A model generated the notes under the pieces. The model was given only the letters and a program-made list of their open reading frames with translations. It was not told where the DNA came from and did no database searches. From Vairimorpha necatrix (lineage: Eukaryota), in assembly GCA_036630325.1 (NCBI GenBank), contig CP142736.1, positions 558,001 to 622,000 of the forward strand: a DNA stretch of 64,000 nucleotides, written 5' to 3'. This document shows, in pieces, positions 2,092 to 61,479 of this stretch; position 1 is the stretch's first letter; the number at the start of each line of letters is the position of its first letter. A program made the position numbers and the translations under genes.

Positions 2092-3300
2092 GGTTAAGTT
2101 CTCGACTTACCCCCCCCCCTAAAAAAAATAAAAAAAAATAAAAAAAGGGGGAAAAAATAAAAAAAAGAGGAAAAAATAAAAAAAAATAAAAAAAAGGGGA
2201 AAAAATAAAAAAATAAATTATTTGACCCATAATGAGAATTAAAGAATTTAGTAAACTCATCTATAAAAAAAATGAGTTAATGAAATCTTTAATTGCAAAA
2301 AAACATTTTGAGGGTCCCTATGTGCAATAAATGCAATATACCAATGACTCAAAATCGGACCAACACTGAAAACTATCGTTGTTATTCAAGACGTGATGGT
2401 AAAAAATGTTCTAACAAAGGAACCATAATGAAACAAAGCGTTTTTAAGAACTCAAAATTGCCTATTGAGGATCTTTTAATATTGCTTTGCAAATGGGTAA
2501 AGGGTTCAAGTAATTTGGCCGCCACGTTAGAACTTGATATAGGTAAATGTACGGTATCAAGATGGTTTACGCGTTTTAATAACGCCGTGTACGTCTGCTA
2601 TTCAACATATATAAACAATCAAACGATTGGCGGCGTCGGTTGTATTGTTGAAATTGATGAAACTTTAATTGTAAAAAGTAAAAACCATGCGGGAAGTGTT
2701 CTTCAATATCAAGTATGGGCAGTTGGAGGCGTTGTGGGATGGGATGCGAATTCTTTTTTCTTGAAATCGTAGAAAATAGAACAAGAGCTACTCTGGTTGA
2801 ATTAATCACAAGAAAAATTGCTCCGGGGACCACAATTGTGACAGATTGTTGGCGCGGCCATAGTGATATTCAAACAATCTGTGTAGAATATGAATATCTA
2901 CATTTTACTGTGAATCACAGCCAAAATTTTGTTGATAATATAACTGGTGCGCATACTCAGACTATAGAGGGAATGTGGTCAGTTACTAAAAGAGAACTAA
3001 GAAAAAGCGGAACTAGTCATGAGACTATTATGAATCTTGTAAGAAAGATTTTCATTAATAGATTCAAATTAATATGTCGTGAAAATCTATTAGATAAAAT
3101 GTTAGAATTTTTTGAAATAGGTAATTTTAGTATTGTAGCATATGATATTATTCCTGAAATAGATTTTACAATTGTTGAATAATTTTTTTTTGTTTTTTTT
3201 TAGGGGTGGGGAGGGTTAAGTCGAGAATTAAACGTTTTTTTATTTTTCCCCCTTTTTTAATTTTTTTTAGGGGTGGGGGGGGCAAGTCGAGAACTTAACC
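2092..3300 (+). mobile_element. Merlin DNA transposon with frameshifted transposase (about 2232-3182)
   Basis: TIR ggttaagttctcgactt(a/g)cccccc; 8-bp TSD aattgaac/aatcgaac; motifs VEIDET, TDCWRG, HTQTIEGMW; empty site aatttaac in the paralog at about 44801. Confidence 0.92.
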
Positions 3301-22900: not shown

Positions 22901-25757
22901 GCCTTGGACATTGGAATTGCGGGAGTACTCACACAATTTACAGATACGGGAAAAGAAATGCCTATAACGTGGATAGGTAGAACGCAAAATAGCGCTGAAA
23001 TTAATTACACTACAACCGAGAAAGAGTGTTTAGCTATTGTATGGTCTATTGAAAAACTTAAAGTATATTTGTCTAACGATTTTATCATCAGGACAGATCA
23101 TAGTTCAGCGATATGGTTAATGAAACAGAAAACACCCATAGGGAGATTGGCAAGATGTATAATAAAACTGCAAAATTATAAATATGAAATCGAACATATC
23201 AAAGGTTTAGGTATTGTCTTGCTGATGTACTTTCACGTGGTGTATTAGAAAATTGCCAATTAAGAAAGTGTCAAACGGTGGTTAAAAATGAAGATAGAAT
23301 AAATATTGAAGAAGACAATGAAACAATAGCAAAACTTATACAGAGAGCACACTTAGAGCTTGGCCATGGAGGTTTGGATTTTACTATAATGTACATCAGA
23401 AATATTGCGAGTGTACCAAATATAAGAAACAGAGTAGTTGAATATATTCGATTTTGTGAGACTTGTAGAAGATTTAGAGACAATACGTTGCAAAACAATA
23501 TTAGACGTGTGGAAATAAAAAGTCCGTATCATATGATTGGGTTAGATATAGTTGGTCCTTTACCCACAACAGGCAGTGCAAATAAATTTATTCTGGTAGG
23601 AACAGACTACCTAACTAAATGGGCAGAAGTGAGAGCTTTAAAAAGAAAAGATGCGGAATCTGTAGCAAAATTTATTTATGAAGATTTTTTATGGAGACAT
23701 GGACCTCCTGAAGTAATATTGACTGATCAAGGACTTGAGTTTAACAATAAAATCATAAAGAAACTGTGTATAATGATAAATACTAGGAAGTCGTTTACAA
23801 GCGCCTACCATCCAAGATGTAATGGACAAACGGAGAGACTAAACGTACCCTTATTGCAAGGCTGGCTAAGATATGTAATGGAAGATGGTCAGAGTGGGAT
23901 ATGTTCCTATCAGTTGCGCTATACGCATATGGGATAATACCACTAATAAAATTCAAGAGCAGTCCTTTTAGATTGTTATATGGGAGAGAGCCTAACGATA
24001 TAACTACGGAGAAAGAAGATGGTGGAGCAGTATTTATAAAAGAAAACGATACACTTAAGAAGATTGAGTTGTTACGATAAAAGTTACACGAAAAGTGATA
24101 GAAGATAGAAATAGAGACATACAACGCGCGAATGATAGAGTTAAAGGCAAAAATATTTAAGTAGGAGATGCGGTTATGAAGAAAAAGGAACCATTTGAAA
24201 AGCTGAATAAGCTTGATTATAAATGGACAGGACCTTATCTGATAAGAAGAAAGTTTGACTCTGGTGGTTTTGAGATCGAGAACATGTATGGAAAACTATT
24301 TTGGTATAATGAAAAAGACTTACAACTAATTGAGAATTCAGATCCCACGGATTGGGAGAGTTTAAAGAAAGGGAGCATGTTACAGGATGATAATCTAGTT
24401 GCTGAGATTATCCTGTAATTACTTTATTGTAGATACTTACCAAAAGTATCTACTGTAAAATATTTACTATAAATAATAAATAAATATTTTACCCATCTAA
24501 AAATATTATGAAAATGAAGGAGAAACTTTATTTAACAGTACCAATGTGCAATAAGTACATGACACCCATGACCAAAATTAGAAATAATTTGGACAAATAA
24601 TGTTGTTACTTACGACGAAGTTGGAGAAAATGCTCAAACAAAGGTAACATTTACAAAGAAAGTATTTTTAAAAGTTCTAGATTAGATATAGAAGATCTTT
24701 TAATTTTGCTGTGTGAATGGGTCAAAGGTGTAAGCAATGTTTCGGCTACTATCGAATTGGATGTAGGTAGTAGTACCGTATCTCGCTGCTTTACGCGTTT
24801 TAATAACGCTGTATTCTTATCCTATTTCAACTACCTTCAAAACAAAACTATAGGAGGTTTAAATTGCGTAGTTAAAATAGATGAGACATTGCTTGTTAAA
24901 AGTAAAAACCATAACGGTAGAATCCTTCAATTCCACGTTTGGGCCGTTGGTGGAGTCGTACGAGGAGACAGCAATTCTTTTTTACAAAATTGTTGAAAAT
25001 CGACCAAGAACTACTCGTGTCGATTTAATAAAACGAAAAATCGCACCTGGATCTACAATTATTACTGATTGTTGGCGAGGTTATGAGGGGATTTCGGAAC
25101 TATGTCCTGATTATAACTATTTACATTTAACTGTAAACCATAGCCAAAATTTTGTAAATCCAACAACAGGCGCCCACACCCAAACAATTGAGGGATATGG
25201 TCTGTAATTAAAAGAGAATTGCGCAAAGAAGGAACAAGCCATGGTTCTTTAATGAATCTCATTCGAAAACTTTATAAAGCTCGTTTTAAGTTAATTTATA
25301 GAAAATCACTACTTGAAAGAATGTTATGCTTTTTTGAAGTTCAAAAAATATGGTTTTTAAATTACGATTTAGCCCCTGAATTTGATTTTGAATTAATTGA
25401 ATAAATTTTAGTTTTGTCTTTTTTTATTTTTTCCCCCTTTTTTAGGGGGGGATAACATCGCAACTTAACCTTTATGGGAGTCAAAAAATCCTACAAGCAG
25501 TATCCTAAGATGGTCAATGATGTTACAAGAATATAAATTTGACGTTGAATATTTAAAGGGCGAGGACAATATGCGGATGGTTGCAGTAGAATATTTAGCA
25601 AGGAACTAAGAATTGCAAGTATCACTAAAGACTTTTCAAGAGAAGAAAAGGAAAAGATACTTAAAGCCTATCACATGAAACGGGACATGGATCCATCAAT
25701 AACATGAAATTTACGATCAAGGAAAAATACTATTGAAAAGGAATTTATAAAGATATC

Positions 25758-27431
25758 CGGTAACCGTAAATTCGCCTACAGGCGAATTTACGGTTTTCCG
25801 CCAAAAATTAAAATTTGCATGTTTTTTCGCCAAAAAAATACCAAAAAAAATGATTGGCATTAATAAAAAATAAAAGATTTGAAAAGTTTATTATAATTTA
25901 AATTAAAATTTGTTTGTTATTTAAAAAGCATTTATAATTAAAATAGGTTTATTAAATTTACTTATTCGCATTTGAAATTCACGTGTTGCAGTAAAGCATC
26001 CATGTACTCTTCACGAGAATAATGTTTAAAATTTTTAATGATTATTCTAATTTTTTCAGCTTCAAATAATCCCTTTATAACGTTTTGGATTATATATATC
26101 CATTTCTTTACAATCGAGTATTCTTGAAATAAAAAGAGCGATATGGGGATTTCTTGTCTCCATCCTCTTGTTTATGGTTCTATTCCAGCTTTCTGCATTG
26201 TACAAAGTCCGGGAATTTCATTTTTTACCCTATCAAATACATTCCAAAAATTTATATTGGCGACAGCTCTCCCACCATTATCTTCTCTTGTTACATGGGA
26301 AACTAAATAATTATTTTCAAAGTATAACTGAAAGTTAGCTGTGGTTGTAATTGAATTATCTTGTATAAATTTCTTAATATCTTTATAAAAAACCGGAACA
26401 TCTCGTATTGGCACAAAAGCTAATCGAAGAATCTTTTTGAATACTAGATTATAGTTAGAATCGTTTTTAAACTTTTCTATGTCCCCCATTGCCCCGACTC
26501 TTTTATAGGCTGCCTGCCCAAGATGAAACAAGCATCCATTACAGTTTGCTCCAGGGAAAGATATTCGTAATGCATTGACCAATCCTCTCTCTCAAAATCA
26601 GTCACAAAGTTCTCAACATTCATAGTAACTAATTCCTTGCATTTATCGAAGCTCTAGAATATGACCTTTCACTTTTTCCATTGAGTAGAATATAAATGTA
26701 TGGAAAACTTTTGCCAAATATATGGCCATGAAAGACAAAAATTTGGTAAAATCCTTGAGGAGAAGATTTAAACGTTCCATCGACAACGAACGTGTCTATT
26801 TTTTCAATCATACTTTTTTTGAATTCTGAAAAAAATATTATAAATCTATCATTATCTTGCATACCACTATCAAATCTAAGAAAACGATTTTTTTTAGAAT
26901 ATACTTGCAAGACTTCGGGTATATCCATAATGCAACCAGTTATAAATCCGAGTCTTGAATTTCTTGTTCGTTTGAATGTATCTCTTAAATATTCTATGGA
27001 AGGCATTTTAGTAATATCTAAGCTGGTTGACAATGCTTGGAGTTGTTTTTTTTATTATTTCTAGGGAGTTTTCATTACTTGTAACAACTTGTTCTTTTTT
27101 TTTGATAGTTCTTTTAAACATGCATTTCTCAGGTACTGGTTCATGTGAATGAATAACTTTTTTAACGATTTCGTTTTGTTCATTCATTGTAATGGCACCT
27201 CTCTAAGACCTATTACTGCCCTTCCATCGCCTAGTGCCGTCCTTATTGTAGTCTAAAGTGTATATCTGATCTTCATAGATAAGATTCTGCCCCCACGTTG
27301 ACCTTTAAAAATTTCAAAGTTGTCGTTCATTTTTTTAAGGGTAGATTTTCGGCGGAAAAAGAAAAAATTTATGGGCAAAATTTTTGGCGAAAACAACCAT
27401 TTTTAAACTTTTGGCGAATTTACGGGCACCC
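25758..27431 (-). mobile_element. Mutator-like (MULE) transposon 1
   Basis: TIR core ccgtaaattcgcc; transposase from ATG 27330 with VVDGTFK and NGCLFHLGQA; flanked by an 80-bp direct repeat. Confidence 0.88.
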
Positions 27432-30312
27432 AAACGGGACATGGATCCATCAATAACATGAAATTTACAATCAAGCATAAATTCTATTGGAAAGGAATTT
27501 ATAAAGATATCGAAAAGCTGGTCTCAGGGAGTGTTATTTGCTTGAAATCTAGAAAGAAAAAAAGAAACACAAAACATAGGGTAATCGAAACTAGCAATCA
27601 CAACGAGCTTTGGGAGTTGACTTGATAGGGCGAATTTCTATACAATAACGCCATTCATTTCATCATAGTAGCGATCGACCATTACAGCAAATGGATAGAG
27701 ACAAAACATTTAAAAAACAAGGAAGCCAAAACCATTAGAGACACTATTGAAGAACTAATAATTATAAAAACTTGGTACTTCGAAACAATTTTGTCGGATT
27801 GCGGACTAGAGTTTAAGAACAAGCAAATAAATGATCTCAATGTTAAATATGGGTTTGAATGGAAATACTTATCACCCGAACACCATAATACATTAGGATG
27901 TGTGGAGAGAATAAACCAGACACTTTGGATAAATATAAAAAACTTACCAACTACGGAAAACCCTTTGGAGAAGTGCATTAGAAAAAGCAACGCTCGCCGA
28001 GAATTTATCCTTTAATAGGGCTATAAGAACTTCCCCATTCAATTTTAAATATGCAAGATCTCCTGAATTTGAGATTGATAAGATTTTTGAAAGGAATCTG
28101 TTATGTCCTTTCATAACATAATTTTATTTTATTTTATTTTCCCTTCAAGTTTTTAAAAAAATTATAAATAAAATTTTAAGAAAGGAGGGCATGATAAATT
28201 TAGAAAATAACTATTGTCGTTTGAGTTCAAAGGCTCCTACATATTTGACACGTTTGACATTTCTCAATATTTTATTATTTAAAACTTTTATATTTTACCC
28301 CCAAGCAAAATGGAAGGAAGAGAAGAAAAAACTAATAAACATTTTAATATCGACATGGCGACAGTGGCAAAAGCAATTAGTGAATTTAATGGCGATCGAG
28401 GCGAAGACATTGAAATGTGGTTAAAGAAGGTGGACATCTTGGCTCAGAGTACTGGACTTTCAGAGAACTCCATTTTAGGGTTAATCATAATTAAACTGAC
28501 AGGAGTTGCCCAGATATATTTGATATCTTTGACCAATGGGAACATTGCTAATATTACCTTAGGGAGTTTAATAATAAGTTTAAAAAAAACGGTTTGGTAC
28601 CCAAACGAATACAGATGAGATTCTTGATCATTTTTTAGCAATTAAATCAGTGAATTCTTACGAAGAATATTCAGAACTACTCAAAGAAGCCACCACTTTA
28701 TTCGAAAGAGACTGCATTGCACTTAAATCACTAATAAGGATGACTATATCTAAGTCTCCGCGGAAACTTAAAACATTGCTGTATCAATATTCATGCTGCA
28801 CTTCAAACTGGAATAACTTTGTCCAACAAGCGGAGGAGGCGGCCTGGATGGCTTTTCCCGAGAGAATCAACAATAGATTAGCCTCTACTGGAACTAAGAC
28901 ATCATATCAGAAAAGAGAAAGACTGCCTCAGAATATTCAAAGAAAAAAATTGTTCTGCATTATTCACAAGCATGGGACCACACAACAGATGATTGTTTTA
29001 TTGTTAAGCAATTGGAAGATAAAGGCTGGAGGAAAGGGAAATCAGCAAATGCGTTAGAAGAAATAAATAAAGCCGATAGCAACATTGACCAAGAAAATAA
29101 AGACTTCAACGTTTACACTTCTAATTCTCTTAGTTATGAAAGAAACCCTTTCTTTATATATTCCACCCTTTCAAAAGCTGCCCCTCACCTGACACTACTA
29201 GATACAGGTGCCGACATCTCTTTGATAAACATAAATCAAATATTAGATAAAAATAAAATAACATCAACAAGTGCTAAAATTAGATCGGCTTCGGGCTCTT
29301 TCATCAATATTATAGGTGAAATTAAGAACCTCAGATTGAGAGTATTCGATGAAGAAATTATATTCTCCCCGTTAGTATGTAAAGGGTTACCTGACTATTC
29401 TATTCTCGGAACTGATGTTATTATAAAATACCCACGCTTGGTCCAAAAAATTCTCCGAAAATTCTTACCTTCAACAAAAATAAATTGTATTCCATTAACG
29501 CAGGAGATTGGAACGAAAAGTAAAACGGACCTTACAGAAAGAAAGATTAGGTCTAATACTATTTGTAAAAGTGAGAATATGGGTCAACCAATCACTTCAG
29601 AAATTCGTCTTAAAGAGAACGAAATAATTACTAAATTTTCCGGATGCTTTGGAGAAACCATCGCACCTGAACCCATTTAAGGTGCAACATTGCATTTCAT
29701 TGACACAGGAGACCATCCTCCTATAAACCAAAAAAACTATCGAATCCCGATACATTATGAACAAGAAATTTCCGAAGACATTCGAAGGAAGCTACAATAG
29801 GGTGTTTTAAGAGAATTTCATAGCCCATGGTGTTCAAGACTCGTCCCTGTTCAAAAGCCTGATAAATCTTTAAGATTATGGATTGATTTTCGAGCTCTGA
29901 ATAAAATAACAATAAGAGATAAATACCCGTTACCCCGAATTGATGAAATACTAGACAGACTAGCTGGGCAAGGACGTTTTCGACCTTAGATGCAACATCT
30001 GGATACTACCAGATCGGTATAAATAAATCAGATAAACAGAAAACAACGTTTGCATGGAAGGGCGGGCTATATGAATATAACAGAATGCCTTTCGGATTAT
30101 GTAATGCTCCCGCTACTTTTCAAATTGCTATGGATAAACTTATCGGAAATCCATGTAATGATTTTGTTATCCCGTATCTAGACGATATAATCATATTCTC
30201 AAAAAACGAAAAAGAACATGGGAAACATCTTCTTATTGTTTTAGAGAAATTAAAAGAAACAGGAAGGCTGACCGATTTTTCGGCCTTAGGCCGAAAAATG
30301 GTCTTTCGGCCT

Positions 30313-30500
30313 AAAAAAAATAAATAAAAAAATAAATAAAAAAATAAATAAAAAAATAAAAAAATAAAAAAATAAAAAAATAAAAAAAAAAAAAAAAAAA
30401 AAAAAAAATAAAAAAATAAAAAAAAAAAAAAAAAAATAAATAAATAAAAATTAAATAAAAATAAATCAAAAAAAAATATTAATAATAATAAAAAAAAATT
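30313..30500. repeat. A-rich low-complexity tract in the MULE 2 subterminal region
   Basis: Runs of (aaaaaat)n and poly-A. Confidence 0.85.
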
Positions 30501-30673
30501 AATTGTTGTAACACATGAAACAAGTACTATCTTGTTTCAAACACCAGACAGTTTCAGTCATCGTAAACCAGTTATCTTCTATTATCTGTAACGTATGTTT
30601 CACTGAAACTATTTAAGAAAACTTATTCTAATAAATTATGCAATTTAATACAGACATGTCTTCGGGACTCAAC

Positions 30674-33600
30674 ATGGCGACAACGATCAAAGGACTAAGG
30701 CAGTTTGCAGGTGAACAAGATGAAGATGTTTACCTTTGGATCGACGAGATCCTATTTATCGCGCAAATTATGCAAAAAACCGAAGAAGAGACTTGTAAAA
30801 TGATTTTTTTACTGCTTAAAGGAGCAGCTCTAAGTTGGGCGTCAGAAACTATTGGAGGTCGCGCCAATCAAATCACATTAAACAATCTACTGGAAGAACT
30901 GAAAACACGATTCGGGGGACAGCAAAATACTAATATATCCCTAATTAGATTTCTAAATGGTAACCCACCTACATCGAGAACCGAATTTACAAAATTATTA
31001 CAGGACGCAACTGTACTCTTCAAAAAAAACTATATGAATATAGTACTGTTACCGGCTGTGTTGCACACACCAATAATCAGACTAAAACTGAAAGATGAAA
31101 CAAATCATAATGATCTGAAACATGATTGTTTCAGATCCGAAACTAAAACTATTTAAGAAATCTTAAATAGAATAGATATGCCAAATAAATATAGTTCTTC
31201 TTCTAATAAAAAGCCTTCTTCAATAACCAGCTCTCCTTCTGGTAACAAGTACCTCTTACGAAAGTCGTGATAAACAAATCACCGTGCCCACTAAAACCAT
31301 TATTACTTCAAGCAGCAGAAGTAGTCGAATCATGGGACCTCTTCGTGAAAAGAGCCGAGAACATCGCATGGATGTCCTTCCCGGATAAATGTCTTAATAG
31401 GGTTACATCGGAATATAGCTCCGATACGGCTGCCCCGACCAACAAAAGATATTGTGAATACCATGAGAGTAACACACACAATACTAAAGATTGCATGTAC
31501 CTAATTCAGCTGAAAAAACAAAAAGGCGGGTTCAAAAAAAACTCTTTTGATAAAAGAAAAAGAAATTCGTCCATAAATTCGATAATTGACAATGGACAAT
31601 CACCGATGACAGAAGAAGTTGAAGAAGATTCAATAAAAAGTTTTAACTTGTACTCGGTTTCTGAGCATACTTTTATATCCAATCCATTCTTCCATATATT
31701 CTTACTTAACTCAAAGCCAATCTGGTGTTTGGTTGACACAGGAGCCGATGTATCAATAATAAACGAATCCTGTATAGAAAAAATGGACTATATCACAACA
31801 AAAAACAGAGGAAATACTAGAATAAGGTCGGCATGTGGGACAGAAATAAAAATATTAAATCGAGCAAACGAAATCGTTTTAGATAAAAAGACGGGCGGTT
31901 CAATCCGCATTAGCCCATATATAGTAGCAAACGGTCCACCTTATATAATACTAGGTTTGGACGCAATTACTAAATATCCGGATCTCCTAATTAATACTAC
32001 ACGAAAACTAATGTCAAGACATAAGAGGACTAAAGAGCCCACTTGCCTTCATTCTCTCACAAGCGAACAGATAGCTTCAAAATACAGTGATATTTTTCAA
32101 ACGGAAATCTCTGAGTTAAACGTGTGTACTAAAGGTAAACACAGGATTGAAATATCGTCAAAGGTGCCTATTTGCTCAAAAGGAGGAAGAGTTCCACTAC
32201 ATTTATGTGAAGAAATTGACAAAGAAATAGAAAAAAATCTTAGGCTTAAAATTATAAGGAAAAGTAAAAGTCCGTGGCGAAGCCAAATTGTGGCAGTTCC
32301 TAAACCAGACGGAACATTACGGATGTGTATAGATTATCGTCCTTTAAACAAAATCACAGTAAAGGACAGATATCCAATTCCTCGAATTGACGAAATTGTC
32401 GACAATCTTGCAGGTGCGCTCATTTTTACCACGCTAGACGCAACTTCTGGTTACTATCAAGTTGAAGTAGATGAAAATGATAAAGAAAAGACTGCATTTT
32501 CCTGGAGAGGGGGACTATATGAATTCAATAGAATGCCCTTTGGTCTCTGTAATGCGCCAGCAACATTTCAGAGGATAATGGATGAAATCTTTGAAGATGA
32601 ACGATATAAGTTCGTTATGCCTTATCTTGATGATATCATAATATATTCCAGAAACGAAGAAGAACACGGACAACATGTGGACATAGTCATGAGGAAACTG
32701 AAGAGAGCTGGAATAAGCTTGAATAAAGCTAAATGTAAATTTATGAAAACAGAAATCAAAATCTTAGGAGTCATTATTGGACATAACACAGTTCGGCCAG
32801 ACCCTGCCAAAATAGAAGCTATTAAAAAGTTCCCATTGCCCGAGACAGTTACCAAATTACGATCATTTTTGGGCATAGTAAATTACTGCAGAGAGTTTAT
32901 AAGGGATTACGCAACCATGGCCCGTCCCTTATTTAAGCTTGTGGGTGGAGAAAAAAAGAATTCACAGAAGCAAATTGAATATACAGAAACAGAAAAGCTT
33001 GCATTTAAACAAATCAAAACGATTTTATCTTCTGCACTCGAACGACAACAGCCTGACGTGAACAGAAAATTTGTGTTAACAACAGACGCCTCTGATATCG
33101 CAATTGGAGCAATACTTTCTCAGGTTGACAATGATGGTAAAGAAAAAATGATTTCCGCATTTAGTAAGGAATTAGATAAGGCTCAACAAAATTATTCAGT
33201 AACGGACAAAGAACTCTTAGCATTAGTCAAAGGCATAGATAACTACAGACACTACTTGTTGGGAAAAGAATTCGTAGTGCGAACGGATCACAAAGCGTTG
33301 GCATATCTTTGGGAATCAAAAAAACCCAGCAGCCGTCTGCTAAGATGGTCATTAAAATTGCAAGAGTATTCCTTCAAAGTAGAATATATAAAAGGAGAAG
33401 ACAATATAGCCGACGCAATGAGCAGAATTAACATTAGTTCTCTGCGATCTAACAAAACATTAAGTGATACGACGCCAGAACTGAGACGAGAAATTATAAA
33501 AGAGTATCATTTATCGCTTGGACACGCATCTTCTGCCGCTATGAAGTATGTAATTACGAAAAGGTATAAATGGGAGGGGATGTTTAAAGAGATTGAAAAT

Positions 33601-34464
33601 TACATCAAAACATGTAGCATTTGTCTAAAAGCTGGAGGACCTCTAGTTAAAACTAAGAATAGGGTAATTTCTTCTTCACAGCCAAATGAATTATGGGAAG
33701 TAGATCTGCTTGGAAGAATTCCCTCAAGAACTGGGAATAAATTTATTTTCGTCGCCGTTGACCACTTTACAAAATGGATAGAAACCAAAGTATTATCTAA
33801 AAAAACTCCGGAAAATATAATTAAGTGCATCAAATCTCTTATCATAGGCAAACACGGAAATCCCCGTAGAATACTCTCTGACGTCGGTTTAGAATTTAAG
33901 AATAGCAAAACAAGCAATTTTGCCGCGAGCCATAACATAAAGTGGGAGTTCGCTTCTCCTGCTCACCATCAGACGGTGGGATGCGTGGAGAGAACAAACC
34001 AGACACTATGGAGGAAATTAAAAAAACTATCTAACTTCGGAAAGATAAAATGGGAAACTAAAGTGGCCGATGCCACACTGGCTGTAAATCTCTCTTATAA
34101 TCGGGCTATCAAAACAACACCGTTCATGTTTAAATACGGTTACGTACCAGTATTAGAAGTGGATCGCAAATGCGGCAAAGCCAATTTACCGATTGACAGG
34201 AGGGTACTTATCCGAGAACGAGACAAATATTTAAAAGCGTACGAAAAAGAAATAGAGCAAGGGAAAAGAGACATTAAGACAGAGTTACAAATTGATGATC
34301 CTGTGTTAATCTATAAAGAAGCTGTTTCAGATAAACTCAAGCCCGAGTGGACTCCCGGCTATAGAATAGTCAAGAAAGTTCCTCCGGATGCTTACATTGT
34401 GAAATCTAAAAATAAGCATTTCCGACTCAACAAAGCACACATCAAACTCAATACGGGTCTTTAA
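30674..34464 (+). pseudogene. Single-ORF gag-pol of Gypsy E, broken only by a solo LTR
   Basis: Removing 31047-31252 restores the frame; VDTGAD, YLDD, TDAS, HHCC and DDE integrase motifs. Confidence 0.9.
31047..31247. mobile_element. Solo LTR in Gypsy E gag
   Basis: tgttacc...ggtaaca ends; TSD agtac. Confidence 0.9.
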
Positions 34465-37400
34465 CTAAGCAAGGGGGTGTTGTAACACATGAAACAAGTA
34501 CTATCTTGTTTCAAACACCAGACAGTTTCAGTCATCGTAAACCAGTTATCTTCTATTATCTGTAACGTATGTTTCACTGAAACTATTTAAGAAAACTTAT
34601 TCTAATAAATTATGCAATTTAATACAGACATGTCTTCGGGACTCAACATAAATAATATAAAAAAACAATAAAACTAAACATAATAACTAATATTAATTTA
34701 ATAATGTAAAAGGGTATTCAAGAGTAGATGAAATTTGAAATAAATAATCAAGCGCGTCTATGGTTTCAAAATTGGATACAATATCATATATATATTTCTC
34801 TTATATATTTTTACACTTTTCATTTACTTTAAAGAACTTGTAATAAGCGCGTAGAATTTTTTGCCTGCTTTTCAAATGCTCCTCATGTAACCTTTCTCCA
34901 GAAACACCCAAATCCGGATTTGCTACAGTAAAAAGATTATCAAGCGATCTATGAAATCCTTCTAAACTATTCGTAGTTCTTGGTAACTTATGTAATACTC
35001 GGTTTTAAACATTCCAAAATAAAATCTCTTCTGCGTCAATGTCAATATAATTTTTAAATACAAATCCTAAAATTGTTTCATATCTCTTTCTATCACTCCT
35101 TGACATAAGCTTTTCTTTAATCAGACCAAAATAATTTAGAACCTCAATAGGTTTAACAAAACTTAACGCTAAAATCCTTCTTATATTCATTTTAAATTCG
35201 ATATCATTTTGATACAACGTGCTCACTTTCAACTCTTGCACTTTCCTATAAATAATCTGGGAAAAATGAAAATTGCACCCATAGAAAACTGCGGCAGGAA
35301 AAGCTGTTTTGAAAGCTTTTCTTGGTGCTAATTCAAAATCTAAATTAAAACATTTAGGGTTAAAATTTGGTGCTTTTTCCACTATAAAATCACATATTTT
35401 CTTATATGATGCCTCATTTTTTTTAACATTAGTATAAATACCAAAGGAATGTACTTAGTATTGATATACGCGACTAGAGTATAGAGTTGCTTGAACTTAG
35501 ATGGAGCAAACTTGAAAGTACCAATCATTAAAACAGTTTTAGTATTCTCAAGGTGAATTAAATTTTCTAGCGTGCAAAGAATCACGACTCTTTCCTTATC
35601 TTCTATCCCAGAATCAAATTGCACAAATAATTCGCCTGTAGGCAAATATTTAATTGAATTTGTGATATCGGTTTTATCGGGAGTTGAGTAACTATGCCTC
35701 CCGTTTCGCATTCTCTTAATTCTATCCCTAATACTAAAGATATCAGGTGTTTTTTTAAAGCTTCATTAGAATATTCTTTCAACGCGTCAAAAATTATAAT
35801 TCTTGACGCCTCAGCAGTTTCCTCTGCCCGTTTTAAGATTTGACCGTAGGAATATTCGAATTTATTTTTGTCGAAGTCTGGCTCGTGTTTGTGGGGGGTA
35901 ACGCTTAAAAAAACTACAATCTAAATTTGTATGAAGTTTTGAAGTGCAGTTTTCTGCTCTACATCTTCATATTATTTTTTCTTTTCCGTTATATCTGAAA
36001 TTATACGCATGTCCTGCATATAATATCTTTCTTCCTCCTCTTTTGGAACGAACTTCACACAGTTCTTCGTGGGATAAATTATCCATTGGGGTATTTTAAA
36101 ATAATTTTTTTTGGGCCGAAAGACCGATTTTTCGGCATAAGGCCGAAAAATCGGCTTGCCATAATCATATTCTCAAAAAACGAAAAAGAACATGGGAAAC
36201 ATCTTCTTATTGTTTTAGAGAAATTAAAAGAAACAGGAATAGTGCTAAAAAAATCAAAATGCACATTTTTTAAAGACGAAAGAAAAATACTAGGCAATAT
36301 TGTTTCAAGGGGATACTTAAAACCCGATCCCACGAAGATTGATACGATTCAAAAATACCCCTTTCCAGAGAACCTAAAAAGCTTACGGTCATTCTTGGGG
36401 CTAGTGAATTACTGCCGCGAATATGTAGCATCTTATGCAGAGTTAACAGGACCATTCTTTAGTCTTCTTAAGGGAGAAACGAAAAATAGTGTAAAAAGAG
36501 TACACTGGTCAGAAGATTTACAGATAAAGTTTCAAAGTTAAAGCAAGCTCTTGCCGGCAAGATAAAATTGAAACAACCAGACTTTAAGCTAATATTTATC
36601 TTAATCACAGACGCGTCTGAAATTGGATTGGTGCAGTCCTTGTACAAGCTGACGATAATGGTGTAGAAGAGGCCATCTCCTTATTTAGTAAAAAATTCGA
36701 CGATTGTCAAATGAATTACTCAATTACAGATAAAGAACTTCTGGCTGTCGTTAAAGGCATAAATAACTTTAGACATTACCTTTTGGGGAAAGAATTTACG
36801 TTAAGAACTGACCATAAAGCGCTAACGTACTTATGGGAATCAAAAAATCCTACAAGTCGGATCCTAAGATGGTCAATGATGTTACAAGAATATAAATTTG
36901 ACGTTGAATACATAAAGGGAGAAGACAATATTGCTGACGGCTGTAGTAGAATATTTAACAAGGAAATAAGAATTTCAAGCATCATTAAAGATTTTTCAAA
37001 AGAAGAAAAAAAGGAAATACTTAAAACATATCATATAGAAACTGGGCATGGATCTGTTAACAACATGAAATTCGCAATCAAAGGAAAATATTTCTGGGAA
37101 GACATATATAAAGACATCGAAAAGCTGGTTACTGAATGTGTTATCTGTTTAAAGAACGGAAATAAAATAAGAAATACAAAACACAGGGTAATCGAAACTA
37201 GTAACCATAATGAACTTTGGGAGGTTTATTTGATAGGACGGATTCCGTATAATGGCACTAATCATTTCATTTTAGTAGCAATCGACCACTACAGTAAATG
37301 GATAGAGACAAAACATTAAAAAATAAGGAAGCTGAAACCATTAGAGATTCTATTGAAGAACTAATAATTAAGAAACATGGTACTCCGAAAACAATTTTGT

Positions 37401-38684
37401 CGGATTGCGGACTCGAGTTTAAAAACAAACAAATAACGGTTTTAATTCAAAATATGGGTTTGAATGGAAATACTCATCGCCAGAACACCATAATACAGTG
37501 GGATGTGTTGAGAGAGTGAACCAAACACTTTGAAAAAATTTAAAAAAATTTACCAATTACGAAGAATCTTCATGGAGAAGCGCATTAGAAAAAGCATACA
37601 CGCTGTGAATGTTTCATTTAATAGAGCCATAGGAACTTCCCCATTTATTTTTAAATACGCGAGATCCCTGATTTTGAGATTGACAAGAAATTTGATAGGA
37701 AGCCCATAAAATTCCAAAGAATGTCTCTGACTAAGAAGAGAAATAAAAATTTTGCTAAATATAGAAAAAGCATAGAAAAGGGTACGATAACGGCCCCGTC
37801 AAATTTTTCAATTGGTGATAAAGTTCTTATATACAGAGAAAACAAAAATAATAAAATGAAAGCTAATTGGTTTCCTGGTTATGAAATAACGGATAGAATA
37901 CTACCGGATGGGTTTATGGTTAAAAATAACAAAAGTTTAATTAGAGTTAATAAAGCTCATATCAAACAAGACCTTTCTTTGGGGGGAGGGAGATGTCGTA
38001 GGAGCTCAAAGGCTTCTACATATTTGACACGTTTGATATTTCTCAATATTTTATTATTTAAAACTTTTATATTTTACCCCCAAGCAAAATGGAAGGAAGA
38101 GAAGAAAAAACTAATAAACATTTTAATATCGACAATTTTAAAATACCCTGATACCAGGTATTTCTAATTTGACAAGAAGAAAAAAGAAAGGACATTGGCG
38201 AAGCTGAAATTTCAATCAGGATAGACTTACCATAGTTGTGAATGAAGAGTTAAGAAATATTATTCTTTTACTTTAGGAAATAAATATGATCATGTAATAG
38301 TTTTAGAGAAGACACAGGATGAAAAAAGGTCAAGTTACTACTAAAGAACGATAAAAAAAACTAAAAATTAATTTTTTTTCAAAGCATACATCCAATATTT
38401 TTCGCTACAAAGGCGTTGGTGTATCTCCTTTTGGAACAAAGACTTGAATTACGATCACTAAAGATGCTAGAGAGGAATACGTGGGCAGACTCTAAGCGCA
38501 CTGGCCGAGAATATATTTGCTAAAGAAGTGGTATGTGTATGTGAATAGTAGTATATCAAAAGATTTTATAAGCATTTATCATATTAGTATTTGAAATTGA
38601 AATTCAAAATTTATAAGCGCTCCTAAATATAAGTGCTATCAACATCTAACATCTAGGAAAAATGCACAATTATATGAATTATTT

Positions 38685-55721: not shown

Positions 55722-56099
55722 ATTGAACCAGGCGTTGTGTTTTCGTCAGGTCCGCGAAATATGTAGTCAGAGATGACTAAGGATCTGTTACCTACGGGAA
55801 CAAATTTTTCTTTACAAGCGAGGCCGTTGAGGTATGCTGGCGTGTAATCGCAATTATTGATGTTTTTCTGGTTGGTGGAGTTTTTGGTGGCTTGGTGGCT
55901 TTTCTTCGTTTTGCTGATTCTGTCTGTCAGGGGACAAGCCCAGGTGCATACTGAGACTTGCCCTGCCCAAGGAATGAATTGTGTTTTGACAGGGCTTTGG
56001 AGAGACCAACACATTAATTGAGAAATGACAGGGAAATATGAATGTGGTCCTCAGCAATAGCATATTCAAAAAGAATACCAATGAGTTATAGAAACAATA

Positions 56100-57794
56100 A
56101 TGAAGGGTAAAGCGCAACAAACCAGGAGCAAGCTCAGTAGAGCAAAAAGTGACCACTTTGGTGGTCCAAACAACAATTTAAATACAGAAATGTATTTAAA
56201 ACAACAAACTAAGCATGTATATGCTAATAAAAGTTTCCCAAGTGTTACTTTCAAAAATGATGGAGAAATGAAATATTTTCTCAAGAAAATCAAAATTCTT
56301 TCAGAAAGAATTAATAAAAACGATATTTTTGACACGTCAAAAAAAGAAAATAACAAAGATCTTCTTGATATTAAAAGATACATATCTAGCACTACTGAAT
56401 TAGTATTGATTCAGCAGACATATTTGGAGCTCTTCCATGATAAGCTAGAAAAACAAAATATCAAATTAAAAAATTTGAAAAAAAATAATCTGATGGATGA
56501 CAGTAATCAAATTACAGAATCAACAAAAAATAAAATTGAGATGATGATAGAGAATCACTCAAAAGAATGTGTAGAACAAAAGGATAATAACTCCGATGTT
56601 CCAAATGATACCAGTAGCGAAACCCTTCAGTTAGCTACTGGAAACAATGATATTTCTAAATTAGAAATCATCAATGAAGATGTTTTAATTAATGTCAAAA
56701 ATCTCCCATCTGCTGTCATAAATCTCGACACTGCTGTCAAAGTAGAAGAACAAGATAAATTGTCAGAAGATGGCAAAAGAAAATGTATAGATGTTTCAAA
56801 GGCATCTACAGATATTATAATTAATAAAAATATTAAACCAAAAGATGGTAAGCTAGATATAGCTTCCATTAACAAAAAAGCAGTAGTTAGACATCTGTCA
56901 ACTATCTCTGCTATTATAGCTGGTAAAAGAAAAGCTCCTAAGAATGGAGTCAAGCTTTTCCATATAAACGAAGACGGATGGACATCTGTCAAACACACAT
57001 TCAAGCCTAAAGTCCAGATAGACTTGAAGAAAAACAGAAGTGGTAAAACCACAGATAAAACCAACTTTAATAGATTTAAATCACTTAAAGTAGAAACTAG
57101 TGGCAATGTAAAAGTGCCTAAAAAGATTAATCATGAAGCTGTAAAGAGAAAAGATATCATTCCTAAAAGAGATCATGAAAAAAGAAGATTACTAAATCAG
57201 AAAATAAATTTTACAAAAAAAACGAAGGACAGAAAAAATGAGAAATGTCAACAAAAAAGAAGGCCAGTTTTACCAAAGAAAAACTGGGCCAAAGAGCTAA
57301 CTGAAGAAGCTCTTATGAAAATTATAAAGGATGGTAGAATTATTTCCAAATGTAAGTTTAGGCTAGCTCTTGCTTCTGGACTCGGATTGAAAGGGAAACC
57401 TCAATCTAGAGACGCTTGGGCAGCCTTAGCTGATGTGGAAAATAAAGATATACCACTTATAAAACAATTTAAAGACTCGGAAGTAGTACTTCTGATGATT
57501 AGAGAACACGTGTGCCAAAAGGTACTAAGCAAGATTAAAGAAAAGTTCGGAGGTTCTAATATCTGCGATGAAGTTAATTTCTTCATCGACTTTTTGTCTT
57601 TAACAAAAACAACTGTTCTAGGAGAGCTGCAAAGACTCTCTGGAACGCATAAAAATTTTGTACCGCTTGTAAAAGCATGTTGGTACATAACTAAAGAATT
57701 AAATAAAGAAAAGCCAAACCATGGTTCTTTCATTTATTTAGAAAATATGATGGGTGAGCCTGCCCGAGAATCTAAGGACTTTAACAATGAATAA
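56100..57794 (+). CDS. LINE ORF1 protein (basic, probable N-terminal coiled coil)
   Basis: 564-aa open frame before ORF2; paralog at 62618; no CCHC knuckle seen. Confidence 0.8.
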   Translation: MKGKAQQTRSKLSRAKSDHFGGPNNNLNTEMYLKQQTKHVYANKSFPSVTFKNDGEMKYFLKKIKILSERINKNDIFDTSKKENNKDLLDIKRYISSTTELVLIQQTYLELFHDKLEKQNIKLKNLKKNNLMDDSNQITESTKNKIEMMIENHSKECVEQKDNNSDVPNDTSSETLQLATGNNDISKLEIINEDVLINVKNLPSAVINLDTAVKVEEQDKLSEDGKRKCIDVSKASTDIIINKNIKPKDGKLDIASINKKAVVRHLSTISAIIAGKRKAPKNGVKLFHINEDGWTSVKHTFKPKVQIDLKKNRSGKTTDKTNFNRFKSLKVETSGNVKVPKKINHEAVKRKDIIPKRDHEKRRLLNQKINFTKKTKDRKNEKCQQKRRPVLPKKNWAKELTEEALMKIIKDGRIISKCKFRLALASGLGLKGKPQSRDAWAALADVENKDIPLIKQFKDSEVVLLMIREHVCQKVLSKIKEKFGGSNICDEVNFFIDFLSLTKTTVLGELQRLSGTHKNFVPLVKACWYITKELNKEKPNHGSFIYLENMMGEPARESKDFNNE

Positions 57795-60700
57795 AGTATC
57801 TTTGTTAAAGTCCTGTTATTATAGGAAATTATTTTCCTATAACAAGAGTGATATTTTCAAATCTCTAAATAAAAAAACGCATAATCCAATTGGATTTACT
57901 CAGATTAAAAATACTTTCCAAACGACAACGAGATTGAATAGTCTCAAATATTTTTCTATTAGAAAGAATATGTGGTGGAAGAAAGTACAAGAACAATATT
58001 GTATTGTCAAGATACAAAGAATTCCTTATGGAGTGAAAGATCTCCTCAAAGACTTATGTAAGAAGAACTCTCTTTTGGAGAATTCCATTATTACAGCAAG
58101 AAAGTATAGACGAAGAGACACGTCTTTTACAAAAATAATAGTTGAAAAACTATACGCAAATTTATTGATTAAGACAGTTAAAGCTAAAGGCTTTAAAGTT
58201 TTAAATGATAATAGAAAAAAACTAGAGAAATCTAGTAAAGTAAATAAAAAGACCAAAGAGAACATAAAACTCTTAAGTCTAAACATTAACCATCTCTCTA
58301 ACAAGAGAGAAGAACTCGAGTGGCTTCTAAAGAAGGAGGAACCAGAAATTATGTGTTTACAGGAAACTTGGAGACAATCTACAAGACCTTTAAAACTTGA
58401 AAAATACACTACAGTTGAAACACTTAGTAGTGGAAAAAATAAACCAGGATTAATAACTCTGGTTAGAAATAATGGAGCGATCAGATGTTCCAAAAAAGGA
58501 ACCGACTCAAACATTCTGCAAACTGTAGTTGAGTTTAGTTCAGCAGGCAAATGGATTAAGTATTTAGTCTTAAATGTCTACATACCACAAAACAAGGATC
58601 TCAAAAGGGAGACCTTGGCCAGATTATTTTCTCTTTTAGAAAAAGAGAATTTCAGAAATAACTATAGTGAGATCATAGTGATGGGAGATATGAATATGCA
58701 GAGTTCTAGTCTCAAGAAAAAACTAAAGGTAGTTGGTTTGCCAGTTACAATAAAATATAACAGCAACGATGGTACAAGGATTCTCAAAGATGGTAAAAGA
58801 TCTAAGAGAAAAATTGATACCATCTTTCGACTAAAAAGTAATGATAATGAGAAGATCATTATATCCAAGTCTTGGGTATTAAGTGATCACTTAGTGCTCA
58901 AAAGAAATATTAAACTTACTGTTGATAAGATCTCAGATCAACTAGTTTATGATAAGAAGATGCTGGAAAATCCAAAAGTGATTAAAAAGCTTAAAAAGAA
59001 GTTGTGTAATCAACAATTAAACATGAATAATCTTCCTGAGATTATTCAAAAAGTTTGTACATCTTTGAAGATTTACAAAAAGAGAGGAGGCCATACTGGA
59101 CTTACAATGAGATGGAGATATTTAAAAGTCTTCAAAGAAAAACGTCTAGCAGCAAGAGCTGTTATGAAAAATTATAATGAAATCAACTCAATTAGATTCG
59201 AATATCTCAAAAAGAGAGTAGACGAAACTAAAAAGTTGATTCGCAAAGATAGATCGAAACTTTGGGCTTTAAGAGGAATAAAGCTCTTTAAAAGTAACAG
59301 ATCCCGAGAATTCTGGCAATGGCTGAAAAATAGAAGTGTCTCCATTCGTTTGGATCAAGTGGCTCTAATTGACCACAATAAGATTCTTCAGACTTGCCGA
59401 GCAAAGAAGCTAGAAATAGCGAATAAATTTTACGCTGATTTGGCGTCAGAGAATGATATAGATGTCAATGTCTATGATAAAGTAGATCTTGTTGATCTTC
59501 CCCCAGAGATAACAGATGAAGAATTTCTATCCGCACTGAAGAAATGTGGAAATAACAAAGCAGCCGGTCCTGATGAGATTCCAACCGAGCTATACAAACA
59601 CTTACTGACTAGAGCAGTAGAAGATAAATTCTTTAAATTCATGCTACATGAATTTAATAAATATATTTGTGGAAATAGTCCTCCTGAATACTGGAGCATG
59701 GCAAACATGATTTGCCTTCACAAAAAAGGAGATGAGACAGATCTGAATAATTATAGGGGAATCTCCTTAATTAACACAATTAGTAAGATCTATCTCAAGA
59801 TAATAAATGACAGGTTAACTCAATTTGTCGAAGAACAAGATATACTCTCTAGATACCAAGCAGGATTCCGAGCAGGTGAAGAGTGTATGAATCAGATTAC
59901 ATCTCTACTAGAAATAGTGAGAAGAAGAGAATTCAGAGGCCTGAACACAATAATGTGTTTCATTGACTTTGAAAAAGCTTATGATAATGTAAGTCATGAC
60001 TTATTATTTGAGAAGCTTACAAAACTTAATATCCCATTGTATTTAATCAATACAATAAAGGGTATTTATAAATATACCACCATGCGTGTGAAAATTGGTG
60101 GTGACACGTCAAGTGGCTATAGCTACAGAAAAGGAGTGAGACAAGGGTGCCCTTGTTCTCCAATGCTGTTCAATATATTCATCAATGATACTTTTGACGG
60201 CATAGAAGGAGTTTTGATCCCAAGATCAAATACGAGAGTTCCGGGACTGATGTTCGCAGATGATATTGTTGTCTTCGGAAACAACATTGATGATCTTAAT
60301 AATAAGATCAATAGAATTTCTAATTGGGCGGTTAATAACAGAATGAGGATTAACTGCACAAAAAGCGGAATATTAGAATGGGCTGCTCATTCTAAAATAC
60401 AAGAATTCCGAAGTTTGTATTCTCTCAGTACAGACTTTGGTGTGATTGAGGAAGTCACTGAATACAGATATCTAGGTGTCTTAATTAAAAGAAACACGCT
60501 AGAAGAACACTTGGTCAAAGACGCAGCAATGCGTGGCAAGAAAGCCTTGGACGCCTTGATGCCCAAGTTGATGAATAATAGCATCAACCTTTACTTCAAG
60601 GCGATCTTAATCAAATGTGTACTAGTACCCACACTAATGTATGGTAGTGAACTGTGGGGAATGTCAAGTACAAGAGCAGGTAAGATTAACAGGATCTTAA

Positions 60701-61479
60701 GAAAATCTATCAGAATGATATTCAAAAGAGTATTAGTTCCACTAGATAGAGTAATGGACGAGTTCAGTATCGAACGAATTCATATACAAGCAGCTTTAAG
60801 TAGATTTAGAGCATACAACAAGTGGAAACACAATAAGACAATCATATCGGATATAATTGCAATAAATCCGAAAGAAAGAAAAACTACCTGGTGTTCAAGA
60901 ACACAAAGATGGTTAAAACGATTTGTCGGCAACGAATACGAATCAAGTGATAGTAAATTTATCACTTCAAAAATAATTGATGTACTAAGAAGTCGAAGAA
61001 CTCTAAATACTTCCTTAGCTGCATCAATAGCAAACCAATATGACATAAGAAATTCACAAATAAAATATGTCATGAACAAAATAAATAATAGAAAAATTAG
61101 AACATATACTAGATTGAGATGTAATCTAGTAAAGTGGTCCTCAGCAATAGCATATTCAAAAAGAATACCAATGAGTTATAGAAACGAATGCTTTTTGTGT
61201 GATGGACCACAAGAAAATTTAGAACACTTTCTGCTGGAGTGCGTCTGTTTAACTGACATTAGATCATCTTTTGAAAATAAACTGCCTCTACTGACTTGTT
61301 CAAAAACAAATATCCGAGATAAAACCAAGCAACTCCTTGGTAATAAAATCGGACTAAAAAATAACCCAGATAAGATAAAAGAACTTTGTTGCACTATAGA
61401 GTTCTTAGATAGAATGGTTGTCTCTAGAAGAATTATGATTAATAACAAACTGAAGGAGATAACGAAACAAAATAATTAA
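57787..61479 (+). CDS. LINE ORF2: APE endonuclease, reverse transcriptase, C-terminal CCHC
   Basis: LSLNIN, CLQET, GDMN, SDH; AGPDEIP, NYRGISL, QAGFR, FIDFEKAYD, GVRQG, FADD; CFLC..EHFLLEC. Confidence 0.96.
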   Translation: MNKVSLLKSCYYRKLFSYNKSDIFKSLNKKTHNPIGFTQIKNTFQTTTRLNSLKYFSIRKNMWWKKVQEQYCIVKIQRIPYGVKDLLKDLCKKNSLLENSIITARKYRRRDTSFTKIIVEKLYANLLIKTVKAKGFKVLNDNRKKLEKSSKVNKKTKENIKLLSLNINHLSNKREELEWLLKKEEPEIMCLQETWRQSTRPLKLEKYTTVETLSSGKNKPGLITLVRNNGAIRCSKKGTDSNILQTVVEFSSAGKWIKYLVLNVYIPQNKDLKRETLARLFSLLEKENFRNNYSEIIVMGDMNMQSSSLKKKLKVVGLPVTIKYNSNDGTRILKDGKRSKRKIDTIFRLKSNDNEKIIISKSWVLSDHLVLKRNIKLTVDKISDQLVYDKKMLENPKVIKKLKKKLCNQQLNMNNLPEIIQKVCTSLKIYKKRGGHTGLTMRWRYLKVFKEKRLAARAVMKNYNEINSIRFEYLKKRVDETKKLIRKDRSKLWALRGIKLFKSNRSREFWQWLKNRSVSIRLDQVALIDHNKILQTCRAKKLEIANKFYADLASENDIDVNVYDKVDLVDLPPEITDEEFLSALKKCGNNKAAGPDEIPTELYKHLLTRAVEDKFFKFMLHEFNKYICGNSPPEYWSMANMICLHKKGDETDLNNYRGISLINTISKIYLKIINDRLTQFVEEQDILSRYQAGFRAGEECMNQITSLLEIVRRREFRGLNTIMCFIDFEKAYDNVSHDLLFEKLTKLNIPLYLINTIKGIYKYTTMRVKIGGDTSSGYSYRKGVRQGCPCSPMLFNIFINDTFDGIEGVLIPRSNTRVPGLMFADDIVVFGNNIDDLNNKINRISNWAVNNRMRINCTKSGILEWAAHSKIQEFRSLYSLSTDFGVIEEVTEYRYLGVLIKRNTLEEHLVKDAAMRGKKALDALMPKLMNNSINLYFKAILIKCVLVPTLMYGSELWGMSSTRAGKINRILRKSIRMIFKRVLVPLDRVMDEFSIERIHIQAALSRFRAYNKWKHNKTIISDIIAINPKERKTTWCSRTQRWLKRFVGNEYESSDSKFITSKIIDVLRSRRTLNTSLAASIANQYDIRNSQIKYVMNKINNRKIRTYTRLRCNLVKWSSAIAYSKRIPMSYRNECFLCDGPQENLEHFLLECVCLTDIRSSFENKLPLLTCSKTNIRDKTKQLLGNKIGLKNNPDKIKELCCTIEFLDRMVVSRRIMINNKLKEITKQNN

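Follow-up and report, generated by a model that had tools for sequence, protein, structure and literature searches.

How does a Mutator-like element (MULE) come to be bracketed by a direct repeat of 80 bp, when published MULE duplications measure 8–11 bp (PMC6446971, PMC5499845)? The question is raised by MULE 1, a decayed transposon in a 64,000-nucleotide stretch of the Vairimorpha necatrix genome (contig CP142736.1, positions 558,001 to 622,000; hereafter the window), and again by a second element, MULE 2. In window coordinates, the relevant features are:

25472..28096, + strand: host Ty3/gypsy retrotransposon remnant split by MULE 1, ~81–83% identical to 36831–37701
25678..25757, + strand: left 80-bp target-site duplication (gypsy integrase-region DNA), single in paralogues and in the run X2 empty allele
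25758..27431, − strand: MULE 1, Mutator-type DNA transposon of family F1, 1,674 bp, decayed; its ends match the family termini
25758..25795, + strand: MULE 1 left terminal inverted repeat, containing a palindrome and lying on the 3' side of the transposase gene
25962..27330, − strand: MULE 1 transposase gene, decayed (frameshifts, stops)
27413..27431, − strand: MULE 1 right terminal inverted repeat, on the 5' side of the transposase gene
27432..27511, + strand: right 80-bp target-site duplication, from the pair comparison
30187..30265, + strand: MULE 2 left 79-bp duplication
30266..36160, − strand: MULE 2 (family F2), with a nested LTR retrotransposon at 30504–34648
36161..36239, + strand: MULE 2 right 79-bp duplication, identical to the left copy

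The flanking repeat is a target-site duplication

The original prediction described two 80-nt segments that match with five mismatches and abut MULE 1, and this is precisely what the sequence holds: 25678–25757 and 27432–27511 adjoin both element ends and differ at five positions (25715, 25722, 25724, 25729 and 25736 in the left unit). A BLAST search inside the window gave the pair an E value of 7e-28, and the window comparison detected no similarity past either edge. The unit occurs as one copy in a gypsy paralogue (37039–37118) and is single in 7/7 other gypsy relatives examined, while a contig from run X2 joins 25676 to 27432 and represents an empty allele with one unit. Insertion of the element created the repeat, which is a genuine target-site duplication. 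Because the unit starts with an AAA run, its length of 80 is indistinguishable from 79 plus one slipped A. MULE 1 itself is ~60 bp shorter than the youngest copies of F1, a family of about 14 near full-length copies in this genome, and is devoid of the second palindrome arm at its right (5') end.

The divergence between the two duplication copies tracks element age, ranging from 0% to 30% (rho 0.90, p = 8e-9, n = 23), and the repeats are therefore not an assembly artefact. That they arose by assembly errors, by switching between haplotypes of a polyploid or by insertion into tandem repeats already present is extremely improbable and already largely refuted, given that the trait is family-specific, that the target differs at every site and that the empty allele and the seven paralogues carry a single unit. 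In favour of an artefact, a single assembly was examined, a related species is reported to be tetraploid (PMC10759460), and none of the contigs examined covers the filled locus from end to end; the X1 contig at the left junction includes just 26 element letters. We also rejected an LTR- or LTDR-bearing element, in which the repeat would be part of the element, since the repeat differs per site and matches the local target.

Duplication lengths across the genome

Among the 55 MULE copies with both ends in this genome, we counted 23 long duplications, 17 of 9 bp and 15 copies without duplication; no duplication length fell between 9 and 67 bp. Thirteen of the 15 gap-free long pairs measured exactly 79 bp, and 22 of the 23 long duplications had a copy of 78–80 bp. 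The length peak near 80 bp expected from a survey across MULE families is thus present in this genome and sharp, which supports the earlier argument for a mechanism rather than chance; a third family (F5) behaves likewise. Long duplications were found in three families, F1, F2 and F5, whereas the other two, F3 and F4, had 9 bp in 12/12 duplicated copies and a long one in 0/12. Lengths are bimodal, at 9 or 79 bp, and remain so within the window's own family F1, whose 14 copies comprise 7 long, 4 of 9 bp and 3 without duplication. Copies of the two classes are intermingled in F1, and the sisters L002 (79) and L005 (9) are 1% apart, indicating that target or context decides, not the element. F5 likewise makes both, usually with a 79-nt and sometimes with a 9-nt stagger. 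Young MULE copies showed no ladder of 69 or 89 bp, and cross-matching the 15 copies without duplication revealed no swapped partners.

MULE 1 and MULE 2 had been proposed to be independent, in line with their different termini, ~31% identical transposases and the different target at every site. Likewise, a general host repair defect, earlier thought unlikely in view of normal Merlin (8 bp) and LTR (5 bp) duplications, is disfavoured because F3 and F4 give 9 bp only and because 0/30 Merlin loci are bracketed by a 75–83-bp repeat. The window's Merlin-type element (2092–3300) carries an 8-bp and its LTR element (30504–34648) a 5-bp duplication, each with 1 mismatch, and exact 8-bp duplications occur at at least 10 of the 30 Merlin loci. 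In the PiggyBac comparison, ends were resolved at 1/8 loci only, that one being TTAA.

Several apparent long repeats were set aside. Merlin duplications of 32–38 nt are repeats within inverted repeats (checked at L172, L174 and L185); direct repeats of 41–63 nt, in nested insertions and at window positions 56041/61131, are short LTRs with TG...CA ends; and L132 and L127 have repeats of 101 and 127 nt that start where a contig ends and resemble overlaps from assembly. A metagenome scan yielded at least 14 distant loci at 21–31% identity, with no informative long duplication among the matches listed, and two viral-collection scans returned no relatives.

Transposases and comparison with known systems

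MULE 1's own transposase copy is decayed, and the domain test was made on L003, an intact F1 sister copy. Its 465-aa protein contains FLYWCH, MULE/DDE, CxxH and W motifs and matches PF10551 with an E value of 1.4e-12 (48 bits, cut-off 27.6), a threshold that all five families pass. Residues D186, D247, E382, C268-H271 and W364 are conserved (alignment A2), the W lying before the E, and the top five Foldseek matches of the F1 model belong to the ISCth4/IS256 family (E 1e-5 to 2e-4, TM ~0.35). Terminal inverted repeats are present, short and imperfect (~75 nt at 85–88% in young copies), and are shorter than the >100 bp typical of MULEs (PMC5499845). The 80 bp of MULE 1 falls outside the canonical range of 8–11 bp, and we therefore class the element as a variant that carries a MULE transposase rather than as a canonical MULE. 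F1, F2 and F5 fall on one tree side versus F3 and F4 (SH-aLRT 95 in the quick tree, 71/87 in the careful tree); monophyly of F1+F2+F5 was not established by the careful tree.

FLYWCH-type single-ORF MULEs (Phantom/Muta1-like) share PF10551, FLYWCH, a DDE domain with CxxH and W, and terminal inverted repeats, the subgroup being likened by features only; 9-bp duplications also occur here, but in a minority of copies, the dominant class being 79 bp. Muta1 is described as moving by cut-and-paste via flanking hairpins with concerted strand transfer (PMC5499845). ISCth4, whose likeness is the fold match to the F1 model, makes 8-bp duplications in vivo and in vitro and follows a copy-out/paste-in pathway (PMC7780238). 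Long target duplications are likewise made by other DDE elements, the bacterial IS1549 and IS1634, at 8–514 bp and with no mechanism proposed (PMC2266710). Their length is variable, however, and they belong to another superfamily in hosts that have no histones, whereas the MULEs considered here alternate between 9 bp and a length constant to within 1 bp. The Pfam and fold matches are to MULE/IS256 rather than to an IS1634-family transposase, and instead of the variable repeats of IS1634/IS1549 we found a length fixed at 78–80 bp. Cas1 integrases (casposons, CRISPR spacer integration) make fixed, ruler-set duplications of ~14–40 bp, longer than usual, but differ in having an unrelated fold, sequence-specific targets and duplications far shorter than 79 bp. 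Our literature searches turned up neither a fixed target duplication of ~79 bp nor a nucleosome-sized one.

A nucleosome as candidate ruler

In F1, F2 and F5 the two element ends become attached to opposite strands of the target with a stagger of 79 nt, which in F1 and F5 is sometimes 9 nt instead. From the sequences of this one genome we infer, with a probability of about one half, strand transfer into two adjacent gyres of one nucleosome, the ruler being one superhelical turn. The transpososome would join the first end at a sequence-preferred site, and the second active site would attack the opposite strand on the neighbouring gyre, 79 bp off along the DNA but in space at about the distance of the usual 9-bp partner. 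The 79 bp would then be unwound and copied by host strand-displacement synthesis or by a replication fork. Where the target is naked or linker DNA, this enzyme would produce 9 bp instead, and for the F3 and F4 transposases the gyre mode would be impossible or unused.

The other long-duplication families arrive at the same 79 with transposases only 24–31% identical to that of F1, which points to a shared external ruler, and the single-base precision and the empty interval between 9 and 67 bp count in favour of a nucleosome. All four core histones, named by sequence resemblance, are encoded in the genome. Ty1 integration hotspots lie ~70 bp apart around the nucleosome dyad; with both PFV and Ty1 the two ends enter one gyre and give 4–5-bp duplications, a difference from the MULEs considered here in that no cross-gyre joining is known. 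PFV exemplifies a DDE enzyme capturing nucleosomal DNA (PMC5481204), and cross-gyre correlated cleavage peaks at ~78 nt (PMC11201919). In an idealised nucleosome modelled at 10.2 bp/turn and 80 bp/gyre, the phosphates of a 79-nt stagger would be solvent-facing and 36 Å apart, against 34 Å for a 9-nt stagger in B-DNA. The geometric fit is rough and gauges distance alone, and the optimum shifts to 77 or 79–81 with the assumed twist. Counting against the gyre model, cross-gyre strands would run approximately at right angles to the strand arrangement of a straight or U-bent target, and known transpososomes bend their targets strongly, mariners preferring linkers (PMC5481204).

The rebuilt targets of 20 long sites offer modest further support. 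AA/TT dinucleotides, the best of four dinucleotide sets, are phased at 10.3–10.4 bp with a trough at the centre (16/20 sites), the strongest term among periods of 5–20 bp (family-wise p = 0.017), and this persists with cut sites masked (p = 0.027) and outside the duplication only (p = 0.019). Such a central trough is what an integer superhelical position should produce. At the 17 sites of 9 bp the phasing was not significant. By family, F5 alone is significant (F1 p = 0.22, F2 p = 0.84), a term at 11.5 bp with the opposite phase comes close in strength (z 3.4 vs −3.6), and the sign is wrong at MULE 1's own site. GC content was 32% in long and 28% in 9-bp targets, a difference that was not significant (p = 0.05–0.24).

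Bendable 10-bp phasing would be selected too if ~70 bp, that is seven helical turns (79 = 9 + 70), were looped out by an oligomer of the transposase or by a host protein other than a histone, with no nucleosome involved. We consider such a protein wrap rather doubtful. It would suit a trait limited to one tree side, and IstB of IS21 bends ~50 bp by 180 degrees (PMC5481204); however, three deeply diverged transposases agree to the base, the long-duplication transposases are single 460–475-aa proteins, no extra domain or helper gene was seen in F1, F2 or F5 elements, the 69/89 ladder is missing from young copies, and the phasing runs beyond the duplication. Its reach, 46–73 bp from the centre, is what a full octamer predicts and speaks against a sub-nucleosomal loop, a very unlikely source of the stagger, in which both ends would attack at DNA entry and exit of a tetrasome- or prenucleosome-like particle, e.g. 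behind a replication fork. Such particles hold ~70–80 bp, so the length fits, histones are present, and a U-shaped target could be better suited by them than by side-by-side gyres; they are, however, transient and less exact.

A matrix trained on 9-bp cut sites placed the true edges of the long duplications at rank 1 of 380 offsets. Taken per end, the cut joined to the element 5' end ranked 1 of 380 and the other cut 98 of 380 (paired p = 0.03), with corresponding ranks of 3 and 8 for F1, 1 and 315 for F2, and 3 and 204 for F5. This weakens the notion of a transposase signature at both cuts in every family, and the one-sidedness leaves direct attack at the second cut unsupported for F2 and F5. 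It would agree with transfer of one end only, the second junction being set by host strand displacement, nicking and ligation within limits imposed by a chromatin particle. Precedents may be seen in the unexplained long, variable duplications of IS1549 and IS1634 (PMC2266710) and in the asymmetric steps of the fold-level relative ISCth4 (PMC7780238). We nevertheless regard one-ended transfer as unlikely: repair end-points should scatter, whereas 13 of 15 gap-free pairs are 79 with both element ends intact, and F1 bears the signature at both cuts. A hidden 9-bp partner cut showed no signature (ranks 217–270 of 380), a negative of little weight, given that even the 9-bp class lacks a significant end-to-end match.

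Duplication length is treated as fixed by the spacing of transposase active sites and is used for element classification; a class fixed at 79 bp that alternates with 9 bp departs from this rule ninefold. Standard tools would miss this class, as a survey of Nosema MITEs, for example, capped duplications at 20 bp (PMC4405373). Each insertion duplicates 79 bp of host sequence, and an imprecise loss of the element leaves this extra sequence behind. Should a nucleosome prove to be the ruler, DDE enzymes would be engaging chromatin in a new way, accessible in vitro through the intact-frame copies of this genome, and the long repeats of other transposons, so far unexplained, could be approached from there. 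The chances are about even that a Mutator lineage integrates across nucleosome gyres, with a chromatin-set stagger switchable with the 9-bp mode and possibly common to uncharacterised JGI, Logan and other microsporidian relatives. Each 79-bp duplication would then be a fossil footprint of one superhelical turn, and together they would document where nucleosomes lay in a parasite not easily studied.

The duplication flanking MULE 1

The 80-nt flanking repeat of MULE 1 was verified with the five mismatches originally noted, and its edges lie exactly at the ends of the 1,674-bp element.

25678-25757, left 80-nt unit
25758-27431, MULE 1 (family F1); transposase gene on the minus strand, decayed
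27432-27511, right 80-nt unit
36831-37701, paralogue of the Ty3/gypsy remnant that hosts MULE 1, with the 80-bp unit singly

The unit is also single in 7/7 further gypsy relatives examined. A contig of sequencing run X2 follows 25522-25676 without a difference and then jumps to 27432, representing an empty site; since its right part (229 nt) carries 11 differences plus 2 gaps, it may stem from an allele that differs slightly. One X1 contig spans the left junction from 25419 to 25783, containing just 26 element letters. Given the single units and the empty site, the 80-bp repeat is a target-site duplication (TSD). At L113, an old F1 copy, the right junction is matched by a loose contig end of X2, so this insertion is present in X2, yet the MULE 1 insertion is missing there on at least one allele.

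A genome-wide peak at 79 bp

We combined DNA, pattern, Pfam and protein searches of the assembly (15.0 Mb, 12 contigs) into a census of five MULE families, whose counts are lower bounds. TSDs were scored for 55 copies with both termini placeable by overlap alignment of the flanks over 130 nt; F1 flanks were additionally compared ungapped to 600 nt, and longer repeats were sought by self-BLAST. Left out were L080 (a segmental duplicate of L076), copies with a single end found, L110 (79-nt repeat, left end deleted) and L113, whose left end is eroded and whose 76-nt repeat matches at 79%.

TSD classes per MULE family
Family: long / 9-bp / none
F1: 7 / 4 / 3
F2: 6 / 0 / 2
F5: 10 / 1 / 6
F3: 0 / 7 / 1
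F4: 0 / 5 / 3

Among 150 trials with mismatched flank pairs, one reached a score of at least 6 (maximum 8), whereas 21/23 long TSDs scored above 35 and two old copies 10.5 and 13. The anticipated length peak near 80 bp was borne out: 13 of the 15 gap-free long pairs measure 79 bp, one 80 (MULE 1) and one 78. The remaining long TSDs span 77-80 with indels; in one case a further insertion has truncated one side, and the alignment of the oldest spans 67/71. Long versus 9-bp TSDs separate F1/F2/F5 from F3/F4 (Fisher p 1e-6, the real units being three families versus two). In 15/55 copies (for example L003, L007, L111 and L057) both ends are present without a duplication, at similar rates in long-TSD (11/39) and 9-bp families (4/16); L111 and L057 have one end type repeated at both termini, as recombination between copies would produce. 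The F5 copies L103, L104 and L106, which share an internal deletion of about 1,160 bp and each have their own long duplication, are a non-autonomous sub-family transposed in the 79-bp mode. Copies of F1, F2 and F5 lie within about 150 bp inside one repeat (left flanks L107, L035 and L115), with the L107 and L035 junctions about 2 nt apart, a possible shared insertion hotspot.

An artefact as the source of the long duplications is barely credible, as divergence between TSD copies grows with element age. It correlates with how far each element stands from its closest relative (Spearman 0.90, p 8e-9, n=23): young copies show 0%, and copies that have diverged by 23% show about 30%. The trait is therefore old and persistent. 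The original prediction had also judged a general host repair defect unlikely, and Merlin elements are indeed normal, at least 10/30 loci having exact 8-bp TSDs; a bracketing 75-83-bp repeat was found at 0/30 Merlin loci, with ends resolved in part of them. Merlin-type transposases are very abundant genome-wide (150/150 scored candidates pass, out of 552 found). Nested LTR elements whose LTRs are very short (41-63 nt) also occur, some of these elements being about 700 bp long and non-coding.

Short-LTR nested elements
L109, 2191-5267
L107, 2072-5415
L116, 2456-3207
L115, 6150-6897
window, 56041-61185

Transposases and target choice

Near-identical proteins are annotated as 'MULE domain-containing protein' in a Vairimorpha microsporidian. 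L003, a sister of MULE 1, retains an intact frame of 465 aa with FLYWCH and MULE domains in a Pfam search and, by alignment, the triad D186/D247/E382 plus CxxH and W motifs; its predicted model (pLDDT 81) has ISCth4 transposase chains as top solved-structure matches. Relatives occur in JGI, Logan and microsporidian records, the TSD lengths here coming from one genome. F1 and F2 termini each have a ~30-nt internal palindrome (window 25765-25795; 30272-30305), at one end or both depending on the copy. F2 copies (window 30310-30503 and others) also carry an A-rich (AAAAAAAT)n tract that separates one terminus from the gene; this tract is variable, and element length ranges with it between about 1.55 and 1.8 kb.

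On the F1 tree, where most forks are unresolved, 79-bp and 9-bp copies intermingle, with L002 (79) and L005 (9) as sisters; a single family therefore makes both. F2 and F5 produce the same 79 despite transposase identities to F1 of 31% and 24%. Two trees place F1, F2 and F5 opposite F3 and F4 (support 95 in the quick, 71/87 in the careful analysis), a grouping that is suggestive only. With a weight matrix built on 34 half-sites taken from 9-bp insertions, the real edges of 20 long TSDs came first among 380 offsets; the reverse test also gave first rank, among 300. The cut-site signal is present at the element 5'-end cut in F1, F2 and F5 and at the opposite cut in F1 only. This one-sidedness fits a scheme in which the first strand transfer would pick its target by sequence and the second would be positioned by a ruler; it also fits a host-placed second junction. 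One-ended transfer followed by host processing, compatible with the single-end signal in F2 and F5, seems distinctly unlikely to us.

A nucleosome turn as candidate ruler

We give a probability of roughly 50% to one nucleosome turn serving as the ruler for the 79-bp stagger. One DNA turn on the histone core measures about 78 nt by correlated cleavage, according to the part of PMC11201919 consulted, and the genome encodes look-alikes of H3, H2A, H2B and H4. L161-L164 comprise three or four divergent H3-like genes, named by resemblance, one decayed and another probably a centromeric variant. Across 20 rebuilt long targets (score >35, L087 excluded), AA/TT shows a 10.3-10.4-bp phasing whose trough coincides with the TSD centre. 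As the best among four dinucleotide sets and three widths, this phasing gave p 0.0015 across ±73 bp; masking the cut sites gave 0.027, and restricting the analysis to DNA outside the TSD gave 0.019; over periods of 5-20 bp the family-wise p was 0.017 (16/20 sites). Taken alone, only F5 is significant, an opposite-phase 11.5-bp term is nearly as strong, and the MULE 1 site has a phase opposite to the trend. At 17 9-bp sites AA/TT phasing was not significant; one SS test gave p 0.049.

In an idealised superhelix model, a 5' stagger of 79 nt, if centred, would place both phosphates outward and 36 Å apart, close to the 34 Å of a 9-nt stagger, the best length moving by about 2 if 10.0 or 10.4 bp per turn is assumed. 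This fit covers distance and facing; strand direction would call for a flexible dimer. The TSD centre may coincide with the dyad, which would put the cuts close to superhelical positions ±4, or it may lie at any integer position up to about 30 bp from the dyad. The 79-bp spacing might instead be set by a protein wrap, which we regard as unlikely, or by a sub-nucleosomal loop, a highly improbable ruler.

For MULEs, the consulted parts of two papers state TSD lengths of 8-11 bp (PMC6446971) and 8-10 bp (PMC5499845). For IS1549 and IS1634, an excerpt of PMC2266710 describes long transposase-made repeats of 8 to 514 bp, without a model, and the literature searched yielded no others; those repeats vary in length, unlike the V. 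necatrix pairs. The portions consulted of microsporidian and fungal element papers (PMC10759460, PMC5751038, PMC7313128, PMC4405373) do not mention a long TSD, the search in PMC4405373 being limited to 2-20 bp. Neither a fixed TSD of 79-80 bp nor integration across gyres turned up in the literature searched, partly in excerpt; supplements, Repbase reports or subscription journals could mention them. Long TSDs are a real and old phenomenon, sharp in length and recurring in three families. MULE 1 works like a MULE and has a MULE transposase, but its TSD departs from the MULE criterion, and we therefore class it as a variant of MULE. The mechanism that we infer behind the 79-bp TSDs is directly testable.
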